A stretch of 63,172 nucleotides of DNA, counting the filler, from Perkinsus olseni (taxonomy: Eukaryota), in the NCBI GenBank assembly GCA_013115125.1. It is 6 parts of 6 records of this genome, joined end to end, with 100 filler letters (N's around TTAATTAATTAA, not from the genome) between each part and the next. Parts side by side here need not be neighbours in the genome. Positions count along the whole stretch, not along the records: positions 31,687 to 42,133 come from JABANN010000876.1; 5 more parts are not named here. One strand, given 5' to 3'. The notes beneath the pieces were generated by a model. It did no database searches and was not told the DNA's origin. It worked only from the letters and a program-made list of their open reading frames with translations. Positions 30,701 through 62,400 of the stretch are shown in pieces. Position numbers and translations under genes: made by a program. Positions within the stretch are counted from its first letter, which is position 1, and each line of letters starts with the position of its first letter.

Positions 30701-31586
30701 AGCTAAAATAAAAACGAAATACGATGATAGGAGGGAAGAAGGAACTTCATTATTGAAAAATATTCTATTAGATAGGAGAAAAATCCAAAAACTGAAAATT
30801 TTTCTAAATAGCTTTACCCCTGAATGGGGGAAGAAGAAATAACAAATGGGACCGGAATACGGCTGAGGGAACCGGAATACGGTGCGTGGAATCATAGCAA
30901 GTGCGGCTGTGGTGGTTGTGGTGGTCGTGGTGGTTGTGGGGTCGTGGTGGTCGTGGTGGCTGTGGTGGCCAAGTGGTGGTGGTATTGGATATCTCTGGTG
31001 GTGGCTTTTTCGAGTGGGCAACTGGATTGCGAACAGCCGAGAGTTATGAAAGAGTTGAAAGTGGTCAGAGCCTGCCGATGCTCAAAGGCTGGAAGTGGCT
31101 GCCCGAGTGCTGAGACTTCGTAACTGAGTTCTAACTCAGGGGCAACGGGACAATACTAGAAATAGGCCAAGTCCCCGCCCTCAACAACAACAACAACAAC
31201 AACTACGCCCACGGTTCCCACTACTACACCAACGGCTCCCACTACCACGCCCACGGCTCCCACTACTACGCCAACGGCTCCTACTACCACGCCTATGACT
31301 CCCACGACCACGCCTACAGCTCCTACTACCACGCCTACGGCTCCTACTACTACGCCAACGGCTCCTACTACCACGCCTGCGACTCCCACGACCACGCCTA
31401 CGGCTCTGACCGCGACGCCCTCGGCTCCTACTACCACGCCTGCGGCTCCCACTACCACGCCTGCGGCTCCCACTACCACGCCTGCGGCTCCTACGACCAC
31501 GCCTGCGGCTCCCACTACCACGCCTGCGGCTCCCACTACCACGCCTGCGGCTCCCACTACCACGCCTGCGGCTCCTACGACCACGC
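27787..31586 (+). CDS. Paralogous Cys-module/mucin gene interrupted by a LINE; 3' end lost in the gap
   Basis: Same exon structure as 24022-25440; Thr/Pro repeat resumes at 31202. Upstream flank also duplicated (23840-23940 vs 27606-27700). Confidence 0.85.
28508..31201 (+). mobile_element. 5'-truncated non-LTR retrotransposon with RT, RNase H and CCHC domains
   Basis: WRPISLL, YDLSAAFD, GVPQGS, YADD, YFTDGS, HWVRGHAG..NE.AD, CRYC..ET..H...C; ORF open to 30842; (CAA)n tail; 11-bp TSD ACTACGCCCAC at 28497-28507 and 31202-31212. Confidence 0.95.
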
Positions 31587-31993
31587 NNNNNNNNNNNNNN
31601 NNNNNNNNNNNNNNNNNNNNNNNNNNNNNNTTAATTAATTAANNNNNNNNNNNNNNNNNNNNNNNNNNNNNNNNNNNNNNNNNNNNCGCAACTAGTTCGA
31701 GTTGTACGGCGACATATTGGTAGCAGCTCCTTGTTAAACCTAAAGGCCTACTACTCTTCTCTGACGTTATGATCCCCGGCGACGAGGCTGATCCTGTTAC
31801 TCCTCGTTCTCATGATGACCAACGTGAAGGTGATCCCCCTCCCCCGGTGATCGAGCCTCCGCCTGCGGTTCCTCAAGGTCAAGCAAGGCCCCCTCCCGGG
31901 GACCCACCGGTCCCCGCGGGGAATGGGCCCGCGCCCGCTAACAAAGTGGAGTGCAAAGTCTAGGCTAGTGAAGTATGTTCCACTTAAGCCATT

Positions 31994-32048
31994 TGGCCTA
32001 AGTGGTTAACTTGTATACTTGCGAACCGAAAGACCCCGGGTTCAATCC
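31994..32048 (+). promoter_or_regulatory. tRNA-type Pol III A box and B box in the 5' LTR
   Basis: TGGCCTAAGTGG and GGTTCAATCC; 47 nt between the T8- and T54-equivalent positions. Confidence 0.6.
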
Positions 32049-32189
32049 CCAGGTCTGACTGATGCGCTATACTGTCTCCGGCTACAGCTGATAAAGCCAA
32101 TAATCGATCAAGCTAAATTAGCTGTAACACCATTGATTGTACTACTGAAACGGTTAACTCAGTAATCTAGAGATTTCTTGTATTTCCTT

Positions 32190-35100
32190 ATGTCCTCTCC
32201 CGCTTTGCGTTCAATTGGTGCCTAGACTCCTGGCTCTTCGAGTGAGAGTTCTGGTAGCGCGAGTGCACCTCGCGCACACCAACTTCGCCCTCTCTCTGAT
32301 TTCTACAGTGAAGACGAAGATGACGTCAGAGACGTCAGCATTGACCTCGATCACGATGATGACGAGGCATTGCTTCCACTGGACGATGAGTTCGCTCATC
32401 GCAGTGATAGTGAGTTGGATGATAGAGATCCTTCTCAACATAAGGTTGGTGATACCCCTCACCAAGAGGGTGGTACTCCTCCTCAGAAAGGTAAAGCGCC
32501 TGAAAAGCGTAAGGTGGTTTTGGATGATACGAAGCCATCGCCTCTAGCCGGGACTTCCAAAGCTCGGCGGATGATCGAACTTCGTAAGAACGCCGTCAAG
32601 TTCAGCGGTGGTGCCGACGAAGATGTTGAAGAATGGTTGGACAAGCTGGATATGATTGCCGGTCCTGAAGGTTTTAACCTTGACTACTATGATCAGGCTG
32701 TGCTCCTCAAGTTATCGGTGTCTGGTCCGGCGTATCAGGCTGCCAAGATGGTCCCGTGTGAGCAGAAGTCCATCGATCCTTCCAGGAAGCGGTACTTGGC
32801 CCGGCTACGATCCGAACTACGAAAGCGGTTTGGTTCGAGCCCTGACAAGGCTGTTGCCAGCTTGAGAAGTGTCAGCGTCAACGACTACACATCGGTTGAT
32901 GAGTATGCTACTGCCGTAAGTCGCCTAGTGCGACAGAGCTTCAGCAATATTCACATCAGATGCCAGGGTGAGATCATGAAGCTGTTCTTCTACAGTGGTC
33001 TACCACACGATCATCCAGCAAGCTCTGCCATCAAGCCGTTCTGCCTTGACCCTACCAAGTCTTATGAGCAAATCATTACTCGCGCGAGGCTATCATTTGA
33101 TAACCTCAGTCAACCGCGAGTAGCCGCACCTGGTGTGCGAAGATTTGACTCTAAGTCTGGCAAAGGGTGGTAAAGGCGGTAAAGGCAAGGGAAAGAGAAG
33201 CCGTGAAGGAGGCCAATCGGTGAAACGCTGTGAGTTTTGCAATAAGACTAATCACACGATTGAAACGTGTAGATTCCTTGCTAAAGCAAGAATGGCCTTG
33301 AAGGTAAGCAACCTCGGGAAGCGGTTTCATGTATTAGATTCTCCGATGCCGCTGTTACTTCAGACTGAGTATAATCTCATTTGCCTTGTCGATTCAGGAT
33401 CAAGTGACTCAATCATAACTCGATCGGCATTAAGCAAGGTTGGTAGAGGTTGTAGTTCAGTTGAAGGTCACCAGGTTGCATTATCGACCATTAAAGGTCC
33501 TCAGTTGTGTACCATCGCAAAGATCCCTGCTACTGTGTTGAGTTGTAACAATGATATACGGAATACTATGCCTGTGTTAGTCGTTGATGCAGATCACATA
33601 GTACACGTAGGTGACTATAGAGTTGATGTAATTCTAGGATGCGATTGGATAGCGATGCACTCTCCTGTAGTATTCGAGAGCACGCATTACACTGAGCCCA
33701 TAATAGCCGCTTCACCGGCATTAGCCTCTGGCGCAGATTCTCAGATTAGAATAGATGAACAAACTGGGAATAGAATCACAGCTACTATTGATGAACCTGA
33801 TTTCATTGCTCGTAGACTAACTGATGGTGATGGTAAATCTGTTTGGCAAGTGGAATGGAAGTAGATTGATAATAAAGCTCCTCCAGGGGTATTCCGTCCT
33901 CCCACTTATGAAAAGCAGATGGAATCACTGAGTCAATCGCAGTTAGATACATGGCAAACGGAAATCAAGAATTGGGAATCCCAAGGCTTCATACAAGAAG
34001 TCAAAAGATCTGATTTGAAGGGAACGTTGACTTTAATGGGAGTCGCGCAAGAACACAAAATCACAACTCCTTGCCGTCCTGTTATAGACTTCAAGCCTCT
34101 AAATAATCAGATCCATTCATATCCCAATTCGGATGACCATGTTACCGTCGACGATACATTACGCCGATGGAGAGCGAACTATACACGTGATGGTAAATCG
34201 ATAGATAGCTGGGTATTGATAGATATAAAGAAAGCATACCTTTGCGTACGCATGAGCCCTAAATGCGCGGCATATCAAGGCCTCATCATAAAAGATGAGA
34301 AAGGATCAACAAGATACATGCGATTGGATCGCCTAGGATTTGGCATTAATATTGCTCCAAAAGTACTGAGAAGTATCATAAGATATATTCTCTGCGAGGA
34401 AGGTCTCGAAAGCCCGATAGATATGTTCGTAGATAATATGCGAGTACCAACTGAGCATGTAGATCAGTTGCGCGAAGCATTACATAGGAACGGGTTTCCA
34501 ACTAAAGACCCAGAGAGCAGTAGCTCAGCACGTATTTTAGGATTACAAATGACTGGTGCGAATAGATGGAAACGACGAAGTGACATCCAGCCCATTGCTG
34601 GCTTCACCTATCGTGATCTTCGTTCGTGGGTGGCCACGATAGCATCATCTCATTATCCTGTCCTAGGATGGCTCTCGCCAGCAGCCAGAGCGCTGGAGAG
34701 ACTGAGTGTTATTGCCAATCCGAGCGCAACTTCGCCCGATCCTCTGCCTGATGATATTGTGACGAAGGCACATAAATTGTACTCAGACATTGTACTACGA
34801 GGAGATCCAGCTACTGGATTCTTCCGGGTAGATCCCTCGCAGCCATGGTCTTTGTACACAGATGCTTCGGCGGACGCAATTGGTGCATGCTTATATTTTG
34901 GGTCGCAATTAGTCGAAGATAAATCTTGGCTACGAGCCACGAAAGACATTCGGCCTATCGATACAGTAGAGCTAGAAGCAGGCTTGAGAGGTCTGAACGA
35001 CCTAACGGTTCCTTGGATAAGAGCCTTAGGAATTAAAACTGGTCTTGCACTTACAGTGTGTGTCGATAACAAGCCAGTCCTAGGCCAACTTTCTAGGAAG

Positions 35101-36378
35101 AAACTCAGCCATTGGGTTGCATCCAAGGGTCTTGCATCAGGTGCAGCGGAGGTTAGGCTACAAATGATAGACGACCTCGTACAGCTGTATAAAATAGACG
35201 TAACGTTCAGATACATAGCCAGTGGTGAGAACCCTGCGGATGAACGATCACGAATACCTGATTATCTAAAATGGCCCAAACCATCAAGGCGTGAGTTGAA
35301 AGCGAAGCCTGAGTCTCATACTTTAGCAGCAGCTACTCGTTCCCATGAATGGCAGGACGTGAGTACGTGTGAGAATGGCTATCTGATTATCCCGCCTGGT
35401 CACGTGAAACAATTTGTAGAAGATAATCACGACCATGAAGGTGCAGAAGCTCCATATCAAAGACTTCGCAAATGGGTAAAATCAGAACCAGGGTTCCGAG
35501 CAATATGCCGAGAGGTTGTTGCTCAGTGTGACGTTTGTAAACGTGCCAAGGCACATCCGAACCAGAACACGGATGGACTAGATCCTGAGACAGGAAAGAA
35601 GAGGAAACGTGATGACGTTGAAAAACGCGCAACACGCAAGTCTTTCATTCCATTTAATAAAGTCCATATTGATGTAGTCGGAAACTACAGAGTTGTTTCT
35701 GGTAAGAAGTCATTCTTCGTCGTCACACTAGTGGATAGTGCCACTGGATATGCTCTGGGCAAGGCCACGAAATCGGCGCCCGTGGGTGAAGACATAGAGG
35801 TTCTATTGAGCCATATGTTAGAGACCTTTCACACAACCCCTTTGGTTGTCTGGTCTGACTCCGGTGCGAATCTGGTTTCGAAACGAGTTGAGGCATTTCT
35901 GTTGAAACATGATATTTTACATTACACGACTGCGAAGAATACTTCGCTGAGTAATGGAAAAGTAGAAAGGTTTCATAGAACACTCAACGAGTACCTCCGT
36001 ACTCATGCCTCCCACGATGAAATTGGCTGGCCTGAATTCACCAGACCAGTCAAAAAGGGAGTGACGAAGTATAATACAACCCCCTACCATGGCGTGTCTG
36101 CGCATGAGAAGGTATTTAGGTTTTCACCTAACTGTGAACCTTACCGTCCAGTGCAGTCACGCGACGAGTGCGATGAACTTTGTCATGAAAACAAAGAAGA
36201 ATGGGGACGAGGACTGGAACCCGGTACTTGTGTATTTTACCGGAATCCCAGACCGTCGAATAAACTCTCCGATCGCTGGTTGGATGCAGTGATTGAAGAA
36301 CGAGTTGGCCCCAAGGCGTACAAGCTAGAAGGCCTGCCCGGCAAGTTCGACTTGAAGGATATTAAGCTGCTTAAGTGA
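32190..36378 (+). pseudogene. gag-pol of the inner element, nearly intact
   Basis: KFSG..EDVEEWL gag motif, CEFCNKTNHTIETC, VDSGS protease, IDIKKAY/FVDN RT, YTDAS RNase H, integrase HHCC and D,D,E. Lesions: TAG 32223, extra G near 33166, TAG 33862. Confidence 0.9.
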
Positions 36379-36444
36379 AGAGAGAGAAGGGGACGAGTGG
36401 AGTGCAAAGTCTAGGCTAGTGAAGTATGTTCCACTTAAGCCATT

Positions 36445-36498
36445 TGGCCGCGTGGTTAACTTGTATACTTGCGAGCCGAAAGACCCCGGGTTCAATCC
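36445..36498 (+). promoter_or_regulatory. tRNA-type Pol III A box and B box in the 3' LTR
   Basis: TGGCCGCGTGG and GGTTCAATCC; 46-nt T8-T54 spacing, as in standard tRNA numbering. Confidence 0.6.
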
Positions 36499-36639
36499 CC
36501 AGGTCTGACTGATGCGCTATACTGTCTCCGGCTACAGCTGATAAAGTCAATAATCGATCAAGCTAAATTAGCTGTAACACCATTGATTGTACTACTGAAA
36601 CGGTTAACTCAGTAATCTAGAGATTTCTTGTATTTCCTT

Positions 36640-37605
36640 ATGTCCTCTCCCGCTTTGCGTTCAATTAACAACGTGCCGGTTTCTGGTCCTGCCCGGTTGA
36701 CGCTTCCGCTTCAGCTGCCTGAGAAGTTCTCTAACGGTCCTCAGCAACAAGTTCGCGATTGGTTCGACAGCTTCGACCTCTCCGCTGCTGCCGTTAACTG
36801 GACCGTTCAGATGAAGGCGTCCTACTTGGGTTTGTTCTTGGCCGGCGCTCCCTTGACCGTGTGGAGGACTCAGTGTTCGCGGGTTGATTATGAGGCTGCC
36901 AAGGCTCTATTGATTCGCACGTTCGACGGTACGCCCCACCCTGACATGGCTCTGAAGAGGTTCAACGCTTATCAGTGGGATCGTAAGATACCGGTTCTGG
37001 AGTTCGTGGCCAACGCCCACAAATTGTTATGCGAGTACAACGACCTCTTGCCCCCAGACCGTCGCTTGTCCCCGGATGCTACGCAGTCCCTCCTCATCGA
37101 CAAGGTTACGGAGTATGCGTCCGGTGGCGCGAGAGCGGAGATGCGTCGGGCTCGGCCTACAACGCTAGCTGAGGCCTGCGATCTCCTGGCAGTCTACTCT
37201 GATGATGCGCCGCCCAGCTCGGTCGGTGCAGTCGCAGCTGTGAGCCCACTCGAGGATAAGGTCAGAGATGAGATGGTTCTTAAGGCGATCAATGACGGGT
37301 TTTCCCGTGGGTTTGAGAAGGTTGCCGACGTGTTGGAAACTTTTGTTAAGAAAGTGCAGGACGTTATCCAGGTGCAACCCACCGTCATCCCCGGTGCTCA
37401 ACCTCCACATGGCCTCGACCCTGGTTCGTGTGGTAGTTGCCAACAGCAAGACCACGGCACGCTGAGTTGCCCGTTCGAGAAGTTCGACAAGGGTTGTGCC
37501 ATCTGCGGCACGGAAGGACATCTGGCCCGGGCCTGTCCCCGGAACCCGTTTCTTCAGCTGATCAGCACTAACGCCAACGACAAGGAGGCGGCTGCTGGTC
37601 AGTGA
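36640..37605 (+). CDS. Outer-element gag, 3' part (5' part at 31769-31944), now in frame with an ATG in the inner LTR
   Basis: PEKFS...VRDWF motif; two knuckles CGSCQQQDHGTLSC and CAICGTEGHLARAC. Excising the insert restores PAN-NVP. Confidence 0.8.
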   Translation: MSSPALRSINNVPVSGPARLTLPLQLPEKFSNGPQQQVRDWFDSFDLSAAAVNWTVQMKASYLGLFLAGAPLTVWRTQCSRVDYEAAKALLIRTFDGTPHPDMALKRFNAYQWDRKIPVLEFVANAHKLLCEYNDLLPPDRRLSPDATQSLLIDKVTEYASGGARAEMRRARPTTLAEACDLLAVYSDDAPPSSVGAVAAVSPLEDKVRDEMVLKAINDGFSRGFEKVADVLETFVKKVQDVIQVQPTVIPGAQPPHGLDPGSCGSCQQQDHGTLSCPFEKFDKGCAICGTEGHLARACPRNPFLQLISTNANDKEAAAGQ

Positions 37606-40333: not shown

Positions 40334-42133
40334 AGTGCACGAGTCGTGCCTGTGTACGAGTTGATAATGTACGAGTTTTCTGCGTACGAGTATTATGTGT
40401 ACGAGTATCATGATGTGCGGGTATTGTGTGTACGAGTCATGAGTGTACGAAAGGACGATGCACGAATCTGAGGAGGGAACGAGTATTCAGTGTACGAATC
40501 GTGTACGAAATGAAAGTGTACGAGTCGTCTGAAACGATTTTTTACTGCGAACCGGTTTAGTGCTCGTTCTATGCTTCTTCAGACCCCTCAACTTATCTGA
40601 GTGATAACACATCCGCTGTAGCTGCAATCCTCTCTACACACTTTCTTCACTTCAACTTTTCAACAACACTCTTTGTCCCCATGAAGAACGGGAGGATCTC
40701 GAACCCGATCGGGTGAAAAACTGGTATAATTTTGGTCGTTTAGCAATCGGACGTTTAACGGGATGCAATGCTGACGGTTCACTCTGACAACCACGTGAGA
40801 CGGATGACGAAGGGTGAGAAGTAGTGCTCTCGGGGACGGGACGAGGCGTCCCCGTAGAGAAAGCGTGGCATGGGACTGCAGGCGAAGGCGAGGCATGAGC
40901 AGAGACATTCTCGCCCGGCGGGCTCCAGTGAACCGAGAGGGAACCCTCTGCATGCACAATTTGGAACCCATCGACCTCCACCTGGAGGTTGACCCCGAAC
41001 CGCCGAAGCCAGTGGTACCGTACCCGAGCAACATGTCCGAAGAAAACCTATCAACAATATAAACGGTCATATCAAATGTAGACGGATGGTCGGCAGTAGC
41101 GAACGGCAACTCAGCTACTGGAACGGCCTTAGGGGAATCGTAAAGAAAGAGCGTTCCACGAGCCGAACCAATAATCGGAAATGCTACAGATGGCGTGGCC
41201 GTAGTGGCCGAAAAGTGTAGAGGTATATTCGGAGTACCGGCGGCAAAAGCTTTTTTACTAACAGTCATACGAGCACCAGTATCAGTCATATCACAAAATG
41301 GAAGTGACATCGAGATATCAGAAGCAATGCGGGCGAAAAGAGAGATGCCCTGCGGTTGCCCGAAAGTCCGCAGAGCGGGGTGCTCGGGGCACTCCGACTG
41401 CCGTAGGTCGGGTGCCCAATTAGTTCCTTGACTGGTCAGCGTCGGGCTCTCTGTCGTCGGCGGTGATGCTGGCTAGCTGAACGAACGGGTTCCGAGGGCA
41501 GGCACGGGCCAGGTGTCCTTCCGTACCGCAGATGGCACAACCCTTGTCGGACTTCTTGAACGGGCAGCTAAGATTGCCATGGTCTCGCTGTCGGCAAATA
41601 CCACACGAACCGCGGTCGGGATCTTAGCGGGGCTGTCCTTCACGACCAAACGGTGGCCTCGGCTGTGGTGGCTGAGGGCCGGCAGCAACAGCTTGCTGCA
41701 CCTGCCAGGTGCAGGTCACCCAGGTGCCACCTGAGCGACCGCCTGAACCTTCTTAACAACGGTTTCCAACACGTCGGTAACCTTCTCCATCTTGCGGTCC
41801 CACTGGTATGCGTTGAACCTCTTCAAAGCCATGTCAGGGTGGGGCGTACCGTCGCATGTGCGAACCAACAGAGCTTTGGCAGCCTCATAATCAACCCGCG
41901 AACACTGAGTCCTCCACGCGGTCAAGGGAGCGCCAGCCAGGAAAAAAACCCGAGTAAGGGGATGTTTACGTTTCGTACACCAAATAGTCGTACATTTTCG
42001 GCTCAAGTCTCCAATACTCATACACTTTCTAATCGTACACCAAATAGTCATACAAGAGATTAGTACATATAGAAGTCGTACACATAGTGCTCGTACACAC
42101 AATATTCGTACGCTTGCAACTCGTACGCGGAAT
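40334..42133. mobile_element. Foldback/MULE-like element with inverted 15-bp-period GTACGA arrays
   Basis: Array 40334-40530 (tgtgtacgag...) and inverted array 41970-42133 (tcgtacac...); right end truncated by the gap. Confidence 0.5.
40550..41945 (-). pseudogene. Internally deleted gag plus protease fragment related to the outer element
   Basis: FLAGAPLTAWRTQCSRVDYEAAKALL matches the gag near 36835; DTGA and DMLLG protease motifs. Confidence 0.8.
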
Positions 42134-43612
42134 NNNNNNNNNNNNNNNNNNNNNNNNNNNNNNNNNNNNNNNNNNNNTTAATTAATTAANNNNNNNNNNN
42201 NNNNNNNNNNNNNNNNNNNNNNNNNNNNNNNNNAAATGGTCGATGGAATGCCGCGCATAGTTCGGGTGGCGTAGAGAGACGTTGCTTTGGCCTGGCATTC
42301 TTCTCTTGGCTGGCTGCTTTTGGAGTTTTTATCGTGGAGCGCACCTAGAACTGACACAGTTTCTTCCCAACGTTTTTGTTACGGATTGGTCGGCTGACTT
42401 TATTCGGCCGGTCCTCAGCGCAGCAACGACCATGAGGGCGCTCAGTCTGCGTACCGACTGAAAAATTCGCTTATCACATCTGTGCAGATCAATGCCGATG
42501 GTGTGACGATGACGAGAGGCACTCCAGCTGATGGAGAGCGTGTCGCTGTGGGGATCCCGGTAGACAAAATGGGAGACAAGCCGTGAGCTAATATACATGA
42601 ATATAGTCGCCCTGGCTTGAGCTTATGCTTTGTAAAAGGCCAGGAGGTCCAAAGATGCGGCCGGCCGGTAATACATTTGGACTTTTTTCTGATTACATCA
42701 TCCTTATCAAGAACCAGTTAGGATCCCTTTTCTGAGCAGTTTTTAGTGTTGTGTGAAGTACAAGTTGTACTGTACAACTTGCAATTACATTCTTTTCTTG
42801 ATTCCTCTTAGCTCTCATCAGATGGAACTAAATAGATTTCCTCTCAGTATCCGACATTTTCACATGCTCCTCGGTCTCCGATAAGGAGAGAATTGAAGCG
42901 TGAGTCAGGGACTGCCAGTCTTAGACTGGTAGGGGTGTGAGCTTGGGTTTGAGTCATCTCATATGAGCCTAAATATCGCGGTTGGAGGGCCCACTGATGG
43001 GCTATGAATGGCCTCATGGTTGCAGCAACCAGGTTGCTGAGTGAGTTATCAGTTTAACTTCCATCACGTGGCGGGAACCAAGCGTACGCATAGGCTGTGC
43101 GTGCGCAGCGATCCTGTCGAGCGAGGATAACTGGCTTAGGACGGGCGACAGCCGGCTTTCTATTGCTGCGTGAATTGTAAAGACATCCAATGTGCATACC
43201 AGCTAGACTAGAGAACTGCGGGCAGCTGCTGATTTTGACGTAAGATCATCGACCGAGGAGTTCCTACAGATGGTTGCAGCCCGCAAGCATTCGTAGGAAT
43301 TCCACGGAACCATTTCCCAAGGATTGCACTCTGCAACTTGCAAGACTACGAGTGTCCGAAGAGCTCATGTGTGGGATGCAGAAGTTTCCTGCATTCTGCA
43401 AGACAGACTTCGGGCGGAGAAAACAATGACGCTTTCCGCTGAGAGCCCTTGCACGATGCTAAGTCACTTTCCTCGATCATCATGATCACCTGGTTACNNN
43501 NNNNNNNNNNNNNNNNNNNNNNNNNNNNNNNNNNNNNNNNNNNNNNNNNNNNNNNNNNNNNNNNNNNNNNNNNNNNNNNNNNNNNNNNNNNNNNNNNACT
43601 CCGCACAGTACG

Positions 43613-59400: not shown

Positions 59401-62400
59401 CCTGCTGCTTGTAAGCTGCTTCTATCCATCCTATGCAACTAGAGCTGATTCAGGTCCCAGCCGAGTGGTCGTCTCCTAGCTGGGGTGGGGCGGTACGGTG
59501 GATATCTGTGGGAGCTCGTCGATGGGGAGGAGGAGGCTATGCCCAGGCTTGGCCTCATGCCGGATGCTCATCCTGGTGGCTTCCTATCCAGGGCCTTCAG
59601 ATTGTTGATCGTCGTCTTGTAGTTCAAATGGTTTGGTCGCCGAGTGGGAGGTTCCTGATCGTTGGATACAACAATGGCCGTGTCTGGCTGGTGAGGTCTC
59701 GGGTTCAATCCCAAGTTGGAGTATTTTTAGAGCAGGTTCCCAAGGACTCATCATTAACTACCTACATTGAGGTGGCCTGTGGTGACGCTATGAGAGGACC
59801 AATAGCAGCAGCGCGATTGTCCGCTGATGATCGATGTTTAGTAGTAGCTTCTCGAGATGGCTCCTTCAGTATACATACTTTGCAAAGGGACAAGGTAGAA
59901 AAGGAGGAACCAGGGATCGAACCAGAGACTATTCGATTGCGAGCAGATCTTCGAGGCCAGCAGGCTATTGGTGGCTCAACAAAGGGAGGGGAAGAGTGGT
60001 ATCGTCGTTGACATGTTCCCGACGCCCGACTGCAGCCTGCGATGCGGTAGTAGTTCACTAACCCTGCGAGCGTCCGCGAAAGTGACCTGTAGACCTACCA
60101 CCAGTGGACAACAGTTGCTGGGAAGTATTAGCTGACAAGGCCGAAGTGCCGGAAGGAATGAAGGTCCGCTTTGCTGCATCCTTGAAATGATATGCTCGGG
60201 ACTTTACCAGGTCATCACAACACGGAGCCACTACTCTGTCGAGGAAGAGAAACTGAAGGCCGAGGAGGAGAAGGCACATGCTGTAGCAGAGGGGCACAAG
60301 GAGGATGTAAGCAGTCACTCGGTGTGGTGGTTAAGGTCCAGATTTCGAATTATAGTAGTCCCGGTTCGATTCCTAGAGCCTCGGCTTTTCTACATAATTT
60401 CTTCGTCAGGTACGGAAGGAAGTGGCGATGCTGAGGCAGCAGTTGGAGGGTATAAGGTCAGCCTTCCACAAGGAGGTGATCATCATCATCTTGGCTCTAC
60501 TTCGCCACCTAACGACTACAGGTTGAAGAAGCCAGCCTACAGCCATTAACTGTCAAGGAGGCTGCGACCTTATTTACAGTTGATGATGAGTATGTGCAGT
60601 CACTGCGTCATCAAATAGATAGCACTGTCGAGGAGGTACGGTCCCACTTGTCCCTTCTGAGACGTTACGACATTCGAGAGTAGGTGAATATCGAAATGGC
60701 TTACGATGTAGAGAAGAGCAAGTTGGGGGTATCTAAGGTTGAAGATCACTTCCTACGGGATGTAGATTGCGAGGCAATCCAGGTCCAGTCCTTCGATCGG
60801 TCTGCATCACCAGTTGGTGGGTTTGATACTTTACAGTAGAGGGCTGCTAGGAGTACTGGTAGGTACCTTCCGTGTCCAGACTTTACCGGAGCACTTTCAT
60901 GAGGAATTGGCGAGACTGAAGGGTCTGCTGGAGCGTTCGGGTAGTAGGAAAGGGTTCACCTATCAGGACTTGAGGTGTTCATAGGGACCACTGGATTACG
61001 GTCAAGGAGGAGGCAAGAAGAGAACAAACCCCCTGGGGCAGCTTCTAGTGGAGATGGCATGAGTGAGTCAGAGAGACCATGGGAAGGAGGGTAGACCCGT
61101 GGTGTAGTTGTGAGCTTGGGAGACCCTGCAGATGGGCAGCAGAGGACACTGACTACAGCGCTGAAGAGGGAGATGAGGAGGGCCAAGCGAGAGCATCGGA
61201 GGAGGCAACTGGAAGAGCTGAAGAATGCCAAGCCTGACGGCAGTATTGATGATGAAAAGGATGTGATGGCTGCTGCACTTCGAAGAACGGAGGGTTTCAG
61301 TACGGGTTTAGGTGGAGGCTATAAAGAGGGCGGAGGCTGGTATGGGTCATTACGTCCTTAGATCCAGTCCAAACTATCAGTTACGTGATAGTGAAAGGTG
61401 ATAATCATCGTCATCACTGCAGTGTTGGTGATGTCGACGGATGTGATGGCATCAGGATGAACACTGATATTAAAAGGAGGCAGATGCTGTTGCTAGAGAA
61501 AGCCTTGCATACCATTCAGTCTGATTTCAATACCGAGGTCAGGCAGCAGAGAGAAAAGGGAGAGATCACTAGTAGTAGCGCAAGGTACTGGAGTTGAGGG
61601 CTCAGAGAAGGAGACTACGGGTGCAGTTCATCGAGGACCTCACCAGGCTGAAGGATATCAGCTCCATACTCAACAGGGAGGAGGATGCCGCCCTTGGTCA
61701 TGCACTAGAGTAAGCCATCGACGTTCGGATTATCACGGCTATCCGGGGCATCTTCTCAGATCAATGTTCCTCAATCAGTGTCGCCTTGCTAGTGTGCCAC
61801 AGCAGCCATCAGATGGGAGTTATACGGCAGTCTTGGAGACGATCATTCAAGCCCTTCGGAAGGACCTGCCAGAGGAATACCCGGACGGCCGATATAATCT
61901 GGTGAGAGCAGAGCGGCTACCGTACTCCGATCGCAGTCGGGCAGGTCACCGAAGGAAGGGCTAGTACGCTGCTTCCCGAACCCCCAAGGGAGCAGGTAAG
62001 AGCAGTGGAGCGGTGCTGATGCTGATCAATGGCCCAGGTATCAGACCTCATACTTGGTGATGATGGGCTGCCCTCAGCGGCTGTCAATCGAAACCAAGCT
62101 AGAAGTAATATCCTGTTGAGCTCGGCGCCTAGGGAACCTCTTTCAGGCTTACTAGAGGACCGTAGCGAGAGTGGAAGAGTGAGAGAGCAGTTGGTGTAGG
62201 ATGATCACATTCCCCTTCTTACTGACACCTCTAGCTATTTCATGCAGCAGGTCCGCACAGAAGGATATATTCTTGAGGGTGAAGTGTGCTGCTGATGCGT
62301 TCAACAAGCGAGTGGCTGCGTTGAGCAATGAGAAGTCTAAGTTGCATGCGGACCTCAAGATGGCGCAAATAAGTCTTATCACATTGTAACGAGAAGGTTG

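Follow-up and report, generated by a model that had tools for sequence, protein, structure and literature searches.

The stretch of Perkinsus olseni DNA analysed here (63,172 nucleotides of assembly GCA_013115125.1, six parts of six records joined end to end with filler; hereafter the window) contains a gag-pol long terminal repeat (LTR) retrotransposon at positions 31945..36666, in the part taken from JABANN010000876.1, and both LTRs of this element carry a degenerate tRNA-like segment with the A and B boxes of an RNA polymerase III (Pol III) promoter. The segment is present family-wide in the LTR of this coding retrotransposon, a design so far described only in tiny non-coding elements. The interpretation we favour, to which we give about an even chance, is that the segment is a captured tRNA-derived relic in an element transcribed by RNA polymerase II (Pol II). 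Loci elsewhere in the assembly are referred to by L numbers. The tRNA-like parts of the two LTRs are as follows.

31987..32058 (approximate), + strand: degenerate tRNA-like segment comprising A box, unpaired anticodon arm, variable loop and T arm
31980..32005, + strand: hairpin (quasi-palindrome), the 3' arm of which is the A box
31994..32005, + strand: A box of the 5' LTR, a variant peculiar to that LTR
32039..32049, + strand: B box of the 5' LTR, in a T-arm-like stem
36445..36455, + strand: A box of the 3' LTR, the commonest form in the family, lacking A14
36489..36499, + strand: B box of the 3' LTR

Using a weight matrix derived from host tRNA genes, we obtained scores for the A and B pair of 29.9 bits in the 5' LTR and 23.6 bits in the 3' LTR, compared to 18.6–29.9 bits for host tRNAs; a score of 23.6 bits was attained by none of the 3,000 sequences made by shuffling the dinucleotides of the 3' LTR. 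The boxes are thus real, and the original prediction of A and B boxes in both LTRs of a gag-pol element was borne out. The B box alone scored 16.6 bits, which is at the tRNA level, and the segment contains the motifs by which the boxes of Helenus elements are recognized (TRGCY and YGG for box A, GGTTC for box B). The start-to-start distance between the boxes is 45 nt in the 5' LTR and 44 nt in the 3' LTR, instead of the 47 and 46 nt given originally, and agrees with the spacing of 43–45 nt found in 42 of 45 host tRNA genes. The proposed resemblance to the head of a short interspersed nuclear element (SINE) rather than to a tRNA held up: ARAGORN made no call, Rfam gave no tRNA match in the 5' LTR region at E values up to 10 and no cloverleaf fold was obtained, which rules out a functional tRNA. 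No near parent was found among 22 host isotype/anticodon classes (best score 41 over 75 nt), an incomplete set for which 63 of 3,889 genome candidates were scored, and tRNA-Asn did not match the segment.

The A box differs between the copies. Among the matched family copies the invariant A14 is confined to the 5' LTR of this element; the form TGGCCGCGTGG is shared by the 3' LTR, L003, L004 and L007, and the A boxes of L005, L006 and L009 likewise lack A14. As the 5'-LTR variant agrees with the opposite arm of the hairpin at 11 of 12 positions, it would most simply be explained as a templated mutation.

A genome search for the LTR gave at least nine matches, and using the two most diverged copies as queries brought up no further family members. 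The tRNA-like segment is present in eight of the copies, in different states of repair: the B box has been lost through a 14-nt deletion in L007, has decayed in L009 and is altered at one invariant position in L005. Both LTR ends are kept in L008, the middle of which is shorter, unrelated and without boxes. Two solo LTRs (L003 and L004) have termini equal to the LTR ends of the element, each with its own 5-bp duplication. When boxes and flanks were compared across the family, as had been recommended, the boxes were not measurably better conserved: there were 11/121 substitutions in the boxes versus 63/626 in the flanks (p=0.87; six copies against the 3' LTR over the first 132 nt, a comparison of low power). 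In L006, the most diverged copy with the segment (77% identical), 2/22 box positions versus 42/233 elsewhere had changed over the whole aligned length (p=0.39). Since the copies are few and non-independent, and decay after insertion is neutral, such substitution counts speak neither for nor against selection.

Outside the family the segment is missing from related elements. Four full-length sister elements have LTRs of 90–204 bp without boxes, and the primer-binding site of the element, which pairs with host tRNA-Phe, was found at 33 loci in the genome versus 4 in controls. Thirty of the 33 were fetched; among the 29 besides this element, 12 had gag-like sequence downstream and 3 were short upstream. 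A sense B box inside the apparent LTR was found at none of these 29 loci, where the B-box matches consisted of one in sense orientation upstream of the apparent LTR and two antisense. The nearest sister with gag and LTR found together (L158/L243) has an LTR of 195 bp, which is similar at its ends and contains no B box. Box-less sisters and the absence from the other Phe-primer loci together make the segment specific to this family, so that the proviso that it might have entered a single sublineage applies in part: one family has it and the sister families do not. The tRNA-Phe primer is used by many LTR families, and a long open frame crosses the primer site in L249, L265 and L267, in the latter two with an ATG at the LTR end.

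Sequences of the same kind are dispersed in the genome. A T-arm pattern gave 54 matches versus none in controls, with tRNA genes at 4 of 30 inspected loci, and a variable-loop pattern taken from the LTR also gave 54 matches (1 in controls), none of 30 being called a tRNA. The full A and B pattern had 17 matches versus 1 in controls; 13 of the 17 do not belong to this LTR family, and whether these are tRNA genes was assessed by eye. With a further pattern, eight LTR-family matches, the locus L226 and six loci at two mismatches were recovered, versus 2 in controls. L226 is a free-standing homolog of LTR positions 42–92, to which it is 75% identical when the B box is left out (E=3e-5 in 764 kb); the similarity of its spacer exceeded that of 500/500 shuffles and its flanks are unrelated. 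The search for the segment outside LTRs thus succeeded insofar as it found one free-standing homolog and many relics, but L226 is single-copy at BLAST sensitivity. Judged as a SINE, which would exist in many free-standing copies, each with a head, body, tail and target duplication, the segment has one homologous head, single-copy as stated, next to many heterogeneous A and B elements.

The dispersed relics share with the LTR the variable-loop/T-arm motif, the spacing and the unpaired stems, and L226 is a direct homolog; they differ in that those inspected lie outside LTRs, many of them beside splice-site-like motifs, that most have no A box and that none is known to be LTR-amplified. We take them to be SINE-head-like or extra-TFIIIC-like (ETC) sequences. 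Dozens of them are B-box relics resembling tRNA tails (L125-L154, L164, L188, L197-L226), many of which start at or directly after a splice-donor-like GTAA motif. Two further A and B relics lie in the window itself, at 60307-60409 (+ strand, 21.6 bits) and ~59913-59968 (- strand, 26.8 bits), the former occupying the greater part of an apparent intron of 103 nt, which opens with GTAAGC and closes with CAG. A repeat family of ~290 bp opens with an A and B pair and shows 86% identity between copies (L165, L166, L037; also C2831:9565); in L037 the body of this repeat is found again next to tRNA genes, and the family is possibly a true SINE.

On the favoured interpretation, the LTR of this family would have acquired one of the tRNA-derived A/B-box relics that are scattered in large numbers through the genome; the captured piece would then have become fixed in the family, since LTR sequence is transferred to both ends during reverse transcription. 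Pol II would make the full-length RNA, as in the box-less sisters, either by initiating in the LTR or by reading through, and the boxes would be passengers without an essential role. Several points weigh against this. The box-less L008 may represent the ancestral state or a loss, the comparison being unrooted, and L226 could be an old LTR remnant and not a source. A and B pairs scoring like that of the LTR are rare, with 1 other in 223 kb of unselected DNA, and random capture into a 272-bp LTR would be a ~0.1% event per family. The diverged copy L006 keeps both box motifs, and its change counts lean the same way as selection would. Box decay in L005, L007 and L009 carries little weight, as it would be expected in dead single copies whatever the function. 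Finally, the element contains no T5 run on its sense strand where ~3.6 are expected, which is likewise true of two of the four box-less sisters.

The coding capacity that sets the element apart from other carriers of such LTRs is seen in its overall architecture.

31940..31944, + strand: left target-site duplication AACAA; the empty (joined) form is present in contigs of runs X7 and X11
31945..36666, + strand: LTR element (gag-pol), 4,722 bp
31945..32216, + strand: 5' LTR, 272 bp, termini AGT...ATT
32174..32212, + strand: pyrimidine-rich LTR end with an ATG at 32190, in the gag frame
32216..32229, + strand: primer-binding site, pairing with the 3' terminus of host tRNA-Phe(GAA) over 14 nt, two of the pairs being G-U
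32226..33173, + strand: gag-like open frame of 315 aa without a Pfam match; the gag regions of sister elements are homologous
33124..33864, + strand: aspartic protease frame, stop-terminated (PF13650, E=0.0014, under the curated cut-off)
33865..36378, + strand: reverse transcriptase (RT), RNase H and integrase frame, 837 aa (rve E=1.5e-8; RT and RNase H matches weak)
36379..36395, + strand: polypurine tract
36396..36666, + strand: 3' LTR, 271 bp
36667..36671, + strand: right target-site duplication AACAA, in a multi-copy host retroelement, within its gag-like frame

The two LTRs are 98% identical and the element was inserted recently. This copy is broken: a stop at 32223-25 separates the LTR ATG from the gag frame, the gag and protease frames are out of register, a further stop lies at 33862-64 and the RT active-site motif is non-canonical. 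Compared with run X7, 20 of the 33 listed coding-region differences fall at third codon positions (p=0.001; 40 of 179 places listed), which indicates that the family evolved under coding constraint. One P. olseni protein resembles the pol of the element (61% over one fifth of its length) and 12 homologous proteins were found without DNA context; no relatives with DNA context outside the Perkinsus genome were found among metagenome or viral contigs, and a PDB sequence search for placing the RT gave no match. The domain order of protease-RT-RNase H-integrase is common to Gypsy and BEL/Pao, and the element would on this basis be a Gypsy- or BEL/Pao-type retrotransposon primed by tRNA-Phe. With Ty3/Gypsy (Metaviridae) and BEL/Pao (Belpaoviridae) elements it also shares priming by a tRNA 3' end and the 5-bp duplication, but its termini are AGT...ATT, not TG...CA, and its primer site overlaps the last LTR base, as is seen in Drosophila gypsy-like elements. 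Troyka was ruled out by its CG...CG termini and 3-bp duplication (PMC12440569).

The start of the LTR (31957-31965, LTR positions 13-21) is complementary over nine bases to the primer site (32220-32228); this complementarity extends over 8 nt in the sister L092 and is absent in L090 and L091. Tf1 is a self-priming element, and a similar mechanism was considered here but is not favoured, given the 14-nt pairing with host tRNA-Phe and the enrichment of the primer site in the genome. The gag-like frame of the invaded host retroelement has a zf-CCHC match, under cut-off, and the uninterrupted host retroelement occurs in contigs of two runs, X7 and X11, which may derive from other copies of it. The 3' LTR supplies an ATG in the same reading frame as this gag-like sequence (36640-37605), so that the insertion could give the host retroelement a new start.

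Whether the boxes could drive transcription of the whole element depends on the T runs that follow them, and the first of these on the sense strand would be the likely end of any LTR-started Pol III transcript.

32518..32521, + strand: first sense-strand T4 run

In total the sense strand contains eight T4 runs, and the longest T run in the LTR is three. Within 25 nt past 91 host tRNA loci, which include array copies and probable pseudogenes, the longest run was T5 in 6, T4 in 32 and shorter in 53; host tRNA loci thus mostly end in T4 or less (85/91), so that T4 is no less than a usual terminator in this host. Transcription by Pol III would therefore probably stop in gag, and the 3' LTR would offer no stop signal. 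Production of genomic RNA by Pol III is accordingly judged unlikely from these sequence features. Internal T runs had been named originally as a possible obstacle, and they are in part just that, eight runs of host-terminator length. A depletion of T runs was also considered as a signature of Pol III (8 runs of T4 or longer versus 14.2 expected, p=0.05); the box-less L096 is more depleted (p=0.01), so the signature is not specific.

The original prediction of a gag-pol element using a tRNA-type promoter stands as regards the segment, which is real and typical of the family, and is unlikely to hold for the genomic RNA on account of the T4 runs. In its strong form, Pol III would start ~7 nt before the A box and make the 4.7-kb genomic RNA of an autonomous element, with trans-splicing capping the translated fraction. 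The geometry permits a 42-nt U3 followed by an R-U5 with the boxes, the sense strand is free of T5, the family evolved under the coding constraint described above, and Perkinsus possesses spliced leaders (PMC3101222). We nevertheless regard this as distinctly improbable, because the polymerase would have to cross eight runs of a length at which host tRNA genes mostly end and would find no terminator in the 3' LTR, and because known Pol III-type LTR elements are no longer than 1,263 bp, their autonomous partners being required to use Pol II according to Kojima (PMC10886601). Nor does the AG upstream of the LTR ATG (32170-72), proposed as the trans-splice acceptor, look convincing: the acceptor is weak, with a pyrimidine tract after the AG and none before it. 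A trans-spliced retroelement RNA would lose R and be usable only as mRNA. The corresponding claim, that this is the first autonomous gag-pol LTR element with a tRNA-type, Pol III-started genomic RNA, made by leaky T4 read-through with partial trans-spliced capping, and the coding parent form of Helenus/TRIMp3 (PMC10886601), is highly doubtful.

A weaker role for the boxes is easier to accommodate. Captured boxes may have been kept for local use, either binding TFIIIC (as a boundary, a nucleosome-free region or an aid to Pol II initiation) or making a short Pol III RNA that begins at ~31987 and ends at the first T run, with the genomic RNA made by Pol II. The tRNA-level B box, the canonical spacing and the retention of both boxes in L006 are consistent with this, as are the non-LTR elements of this genome that keep both boxes around scrambled anticodon arms, which suggests that such pairs are maintainable; Pol III cassettes are moreover documented in coding retroviral LTRs (PMC3993851). 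We consider it possible but on the whole unlikely, given that no significant excess of box conservation was found, that the A box of the family lacks A14, that the LTR has no T4 terminator, unlike the foamy-virus cassettes, and that sister families manage without boxes.

The A box might alternatively be a decayed spliced leader, reverse-transcribed from a trans-spliced RNA (RNA 5' end at ~31982), with a B box that is a common tRNA-tail relic, the spacing being due to chance or secondary. This predicts an RNA 5' end nearly where the Pol III model does. Positions 31982-32002 of the 5' LTR match the 21-nt Perkinsus leader PmaSL2 at 15 of 21 positions (PMC3101222), which 21 of 3,000 shuffles equalled, in a comparison made post hoc, and none of 69 host tRNA 5' halves came within 7 mismatches of either leader (21 or 22 nt). 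The core AGCCAT.TGGC is kept at 10/11 in most family copies, relics that have only a B box and share the variable-loop motif are common, and another LTR family has a clear leader 84 nt upstream of its tRNA-Phe primer site (L254:482-501 on the - strand, and L266). The other eight family LTRs, however, match the leader over its whole length at only 10-13 positions, which is at chance level, the 3' LTR being equalled by 1,938 of 3,000 shuffles; the 5'-LTR variant fits the opposite hairpin arm (11/12) better than the leader (7/9), and the spacing of the boxes is exactly tRNA-like. On balance a leader origin seems improbable. At two places in the genome, both unrelated to this LTR, a B box follows a perfect leader at a distance of 20-45 nt. 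Primers for the 'SL-S-like' repeat of P. marinus (PMC3101222) contain a short leader, TG and then a 10/12 match to the LTR spacer (31987-32022; noted by eye and post hoc).

Acquisition of the LTR from a Helenus-type non-coding terminal-repeat retrotransposon in miniature (TRIM), by recombination with an autonomous helper, is the least credible account. Solo or partial LTRs (7) do exceed the one full element in the assembly, but no two-LTR miniature was found; the 7 other copies have no element-internal sequence within ~1.5 kb and are single matches each. The LTR 3' end, too, is like that of the box-less sister L158, and two LTR-specific words are absent from the Helenus supplement (PMC10886601) in a word search, which is not an alignment. 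We consider such an origin very improbable, and return to capture of a dispersed relic by a Pol II-transcribed element as the preferred explanation.

The closest published counterparts are the Helenus (TRIMp3) elements described by Kojima in 2024, non-coding TRIMs of 311-1,263 bp with tRNA-derived LTRs, known from fungi, animals and one plant, which were proposed to have arisen when a tRNA-derived element inserted into an LTR (PMC10886601). Cassandra was hence not the only recognized exception to Pol II promoters in LTRs, as had been assumed. The P. olseni element resembles Helenus in having a degenerate tRNA segment with boxes A and B in both LTRs, a tRNA primer site, a polypurine tract and solo LTRs, and its two LTRs and 5-bp target duplication fall within the definition used there (4-6 bp). 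It differs in its length of 4,722 bp, its gag, protease, RT, RNase H and integrase frames and its alveolate host, and is thus Helenus-like in LTR anatomy but not a Helenus member. The word 'Perkinsus' is absent from the text of the Helenus supplement, which was searched by word and not by alignment in view of a possible horizontal link to bivalves (PMC10886601). Cassandra and Ajax TRIMs also have Pol III-type internal promoter sequence in their LTRs, which is 5S-derived in these non-coding elements; Cassandra has terminators in the 5S part and validated Pol III transcripts, unlike the LTR studied here, which contains no T4 run (PMC10886601). The microRNA cassettes in foamy-virus LTRs are similar in that a coding LTR retroelement has predicted internal Pol III promoters in addition to longer Pol II transcripts, but they lie in U3, have terminators and were shown by experiment to yield short hairpin RNAs (PMC3993851), whereas the present LTR is without a terminator. 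Dada transposons target Perkinsus tRNA genes (PMC3706591) but are not linked here to the tRNA-like segment.

According to Kojima, 'not a few' Repbase LTRs hold tRNA-like parts, of which only those of TRIMs were analysed (PMC10886601), so that coding cases may exist undescribed. In our literature search, with Repbase and subscription journals outside it, we came across no gag-pol element described as having a tRNA-derived promoter in its LTR, and the available sections of PMC12859917 and PMC6027434 contained nothing on such an element. The limitation of tRNA-promoter LTRs to short non-coding elements has been attributed to the inability of Pol III to make long RNA (PMC10886601). A coding family with a fixed tRNA-like LTR segment extends the design to alveolates and, together with the abundant candidate donors, provides a natural test case for both the length limit and the insertion origin. 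If the boxes are functional, the family would illustrate how transcription and capping are managed by a retrotransposon whose host carries out trans-splicing; should they have no function, it would be a minor case of cargo capture by an LTR.

Three features of the window lie apart from the element. An ARAGORN call of tRNA-Gly at 41666-41743 is antisense to retroelement gag-like sequence, has no canonical boxes and is probably false. The 12-nt TTAA-repeat linkers in the N gaps (31631-31642 and 42178-42189) are artefacts. A tandem array of 21-nt units at 31115-31586, cut off by a gap, encodes a Thr/Pro-rich, mucin-like sequence.

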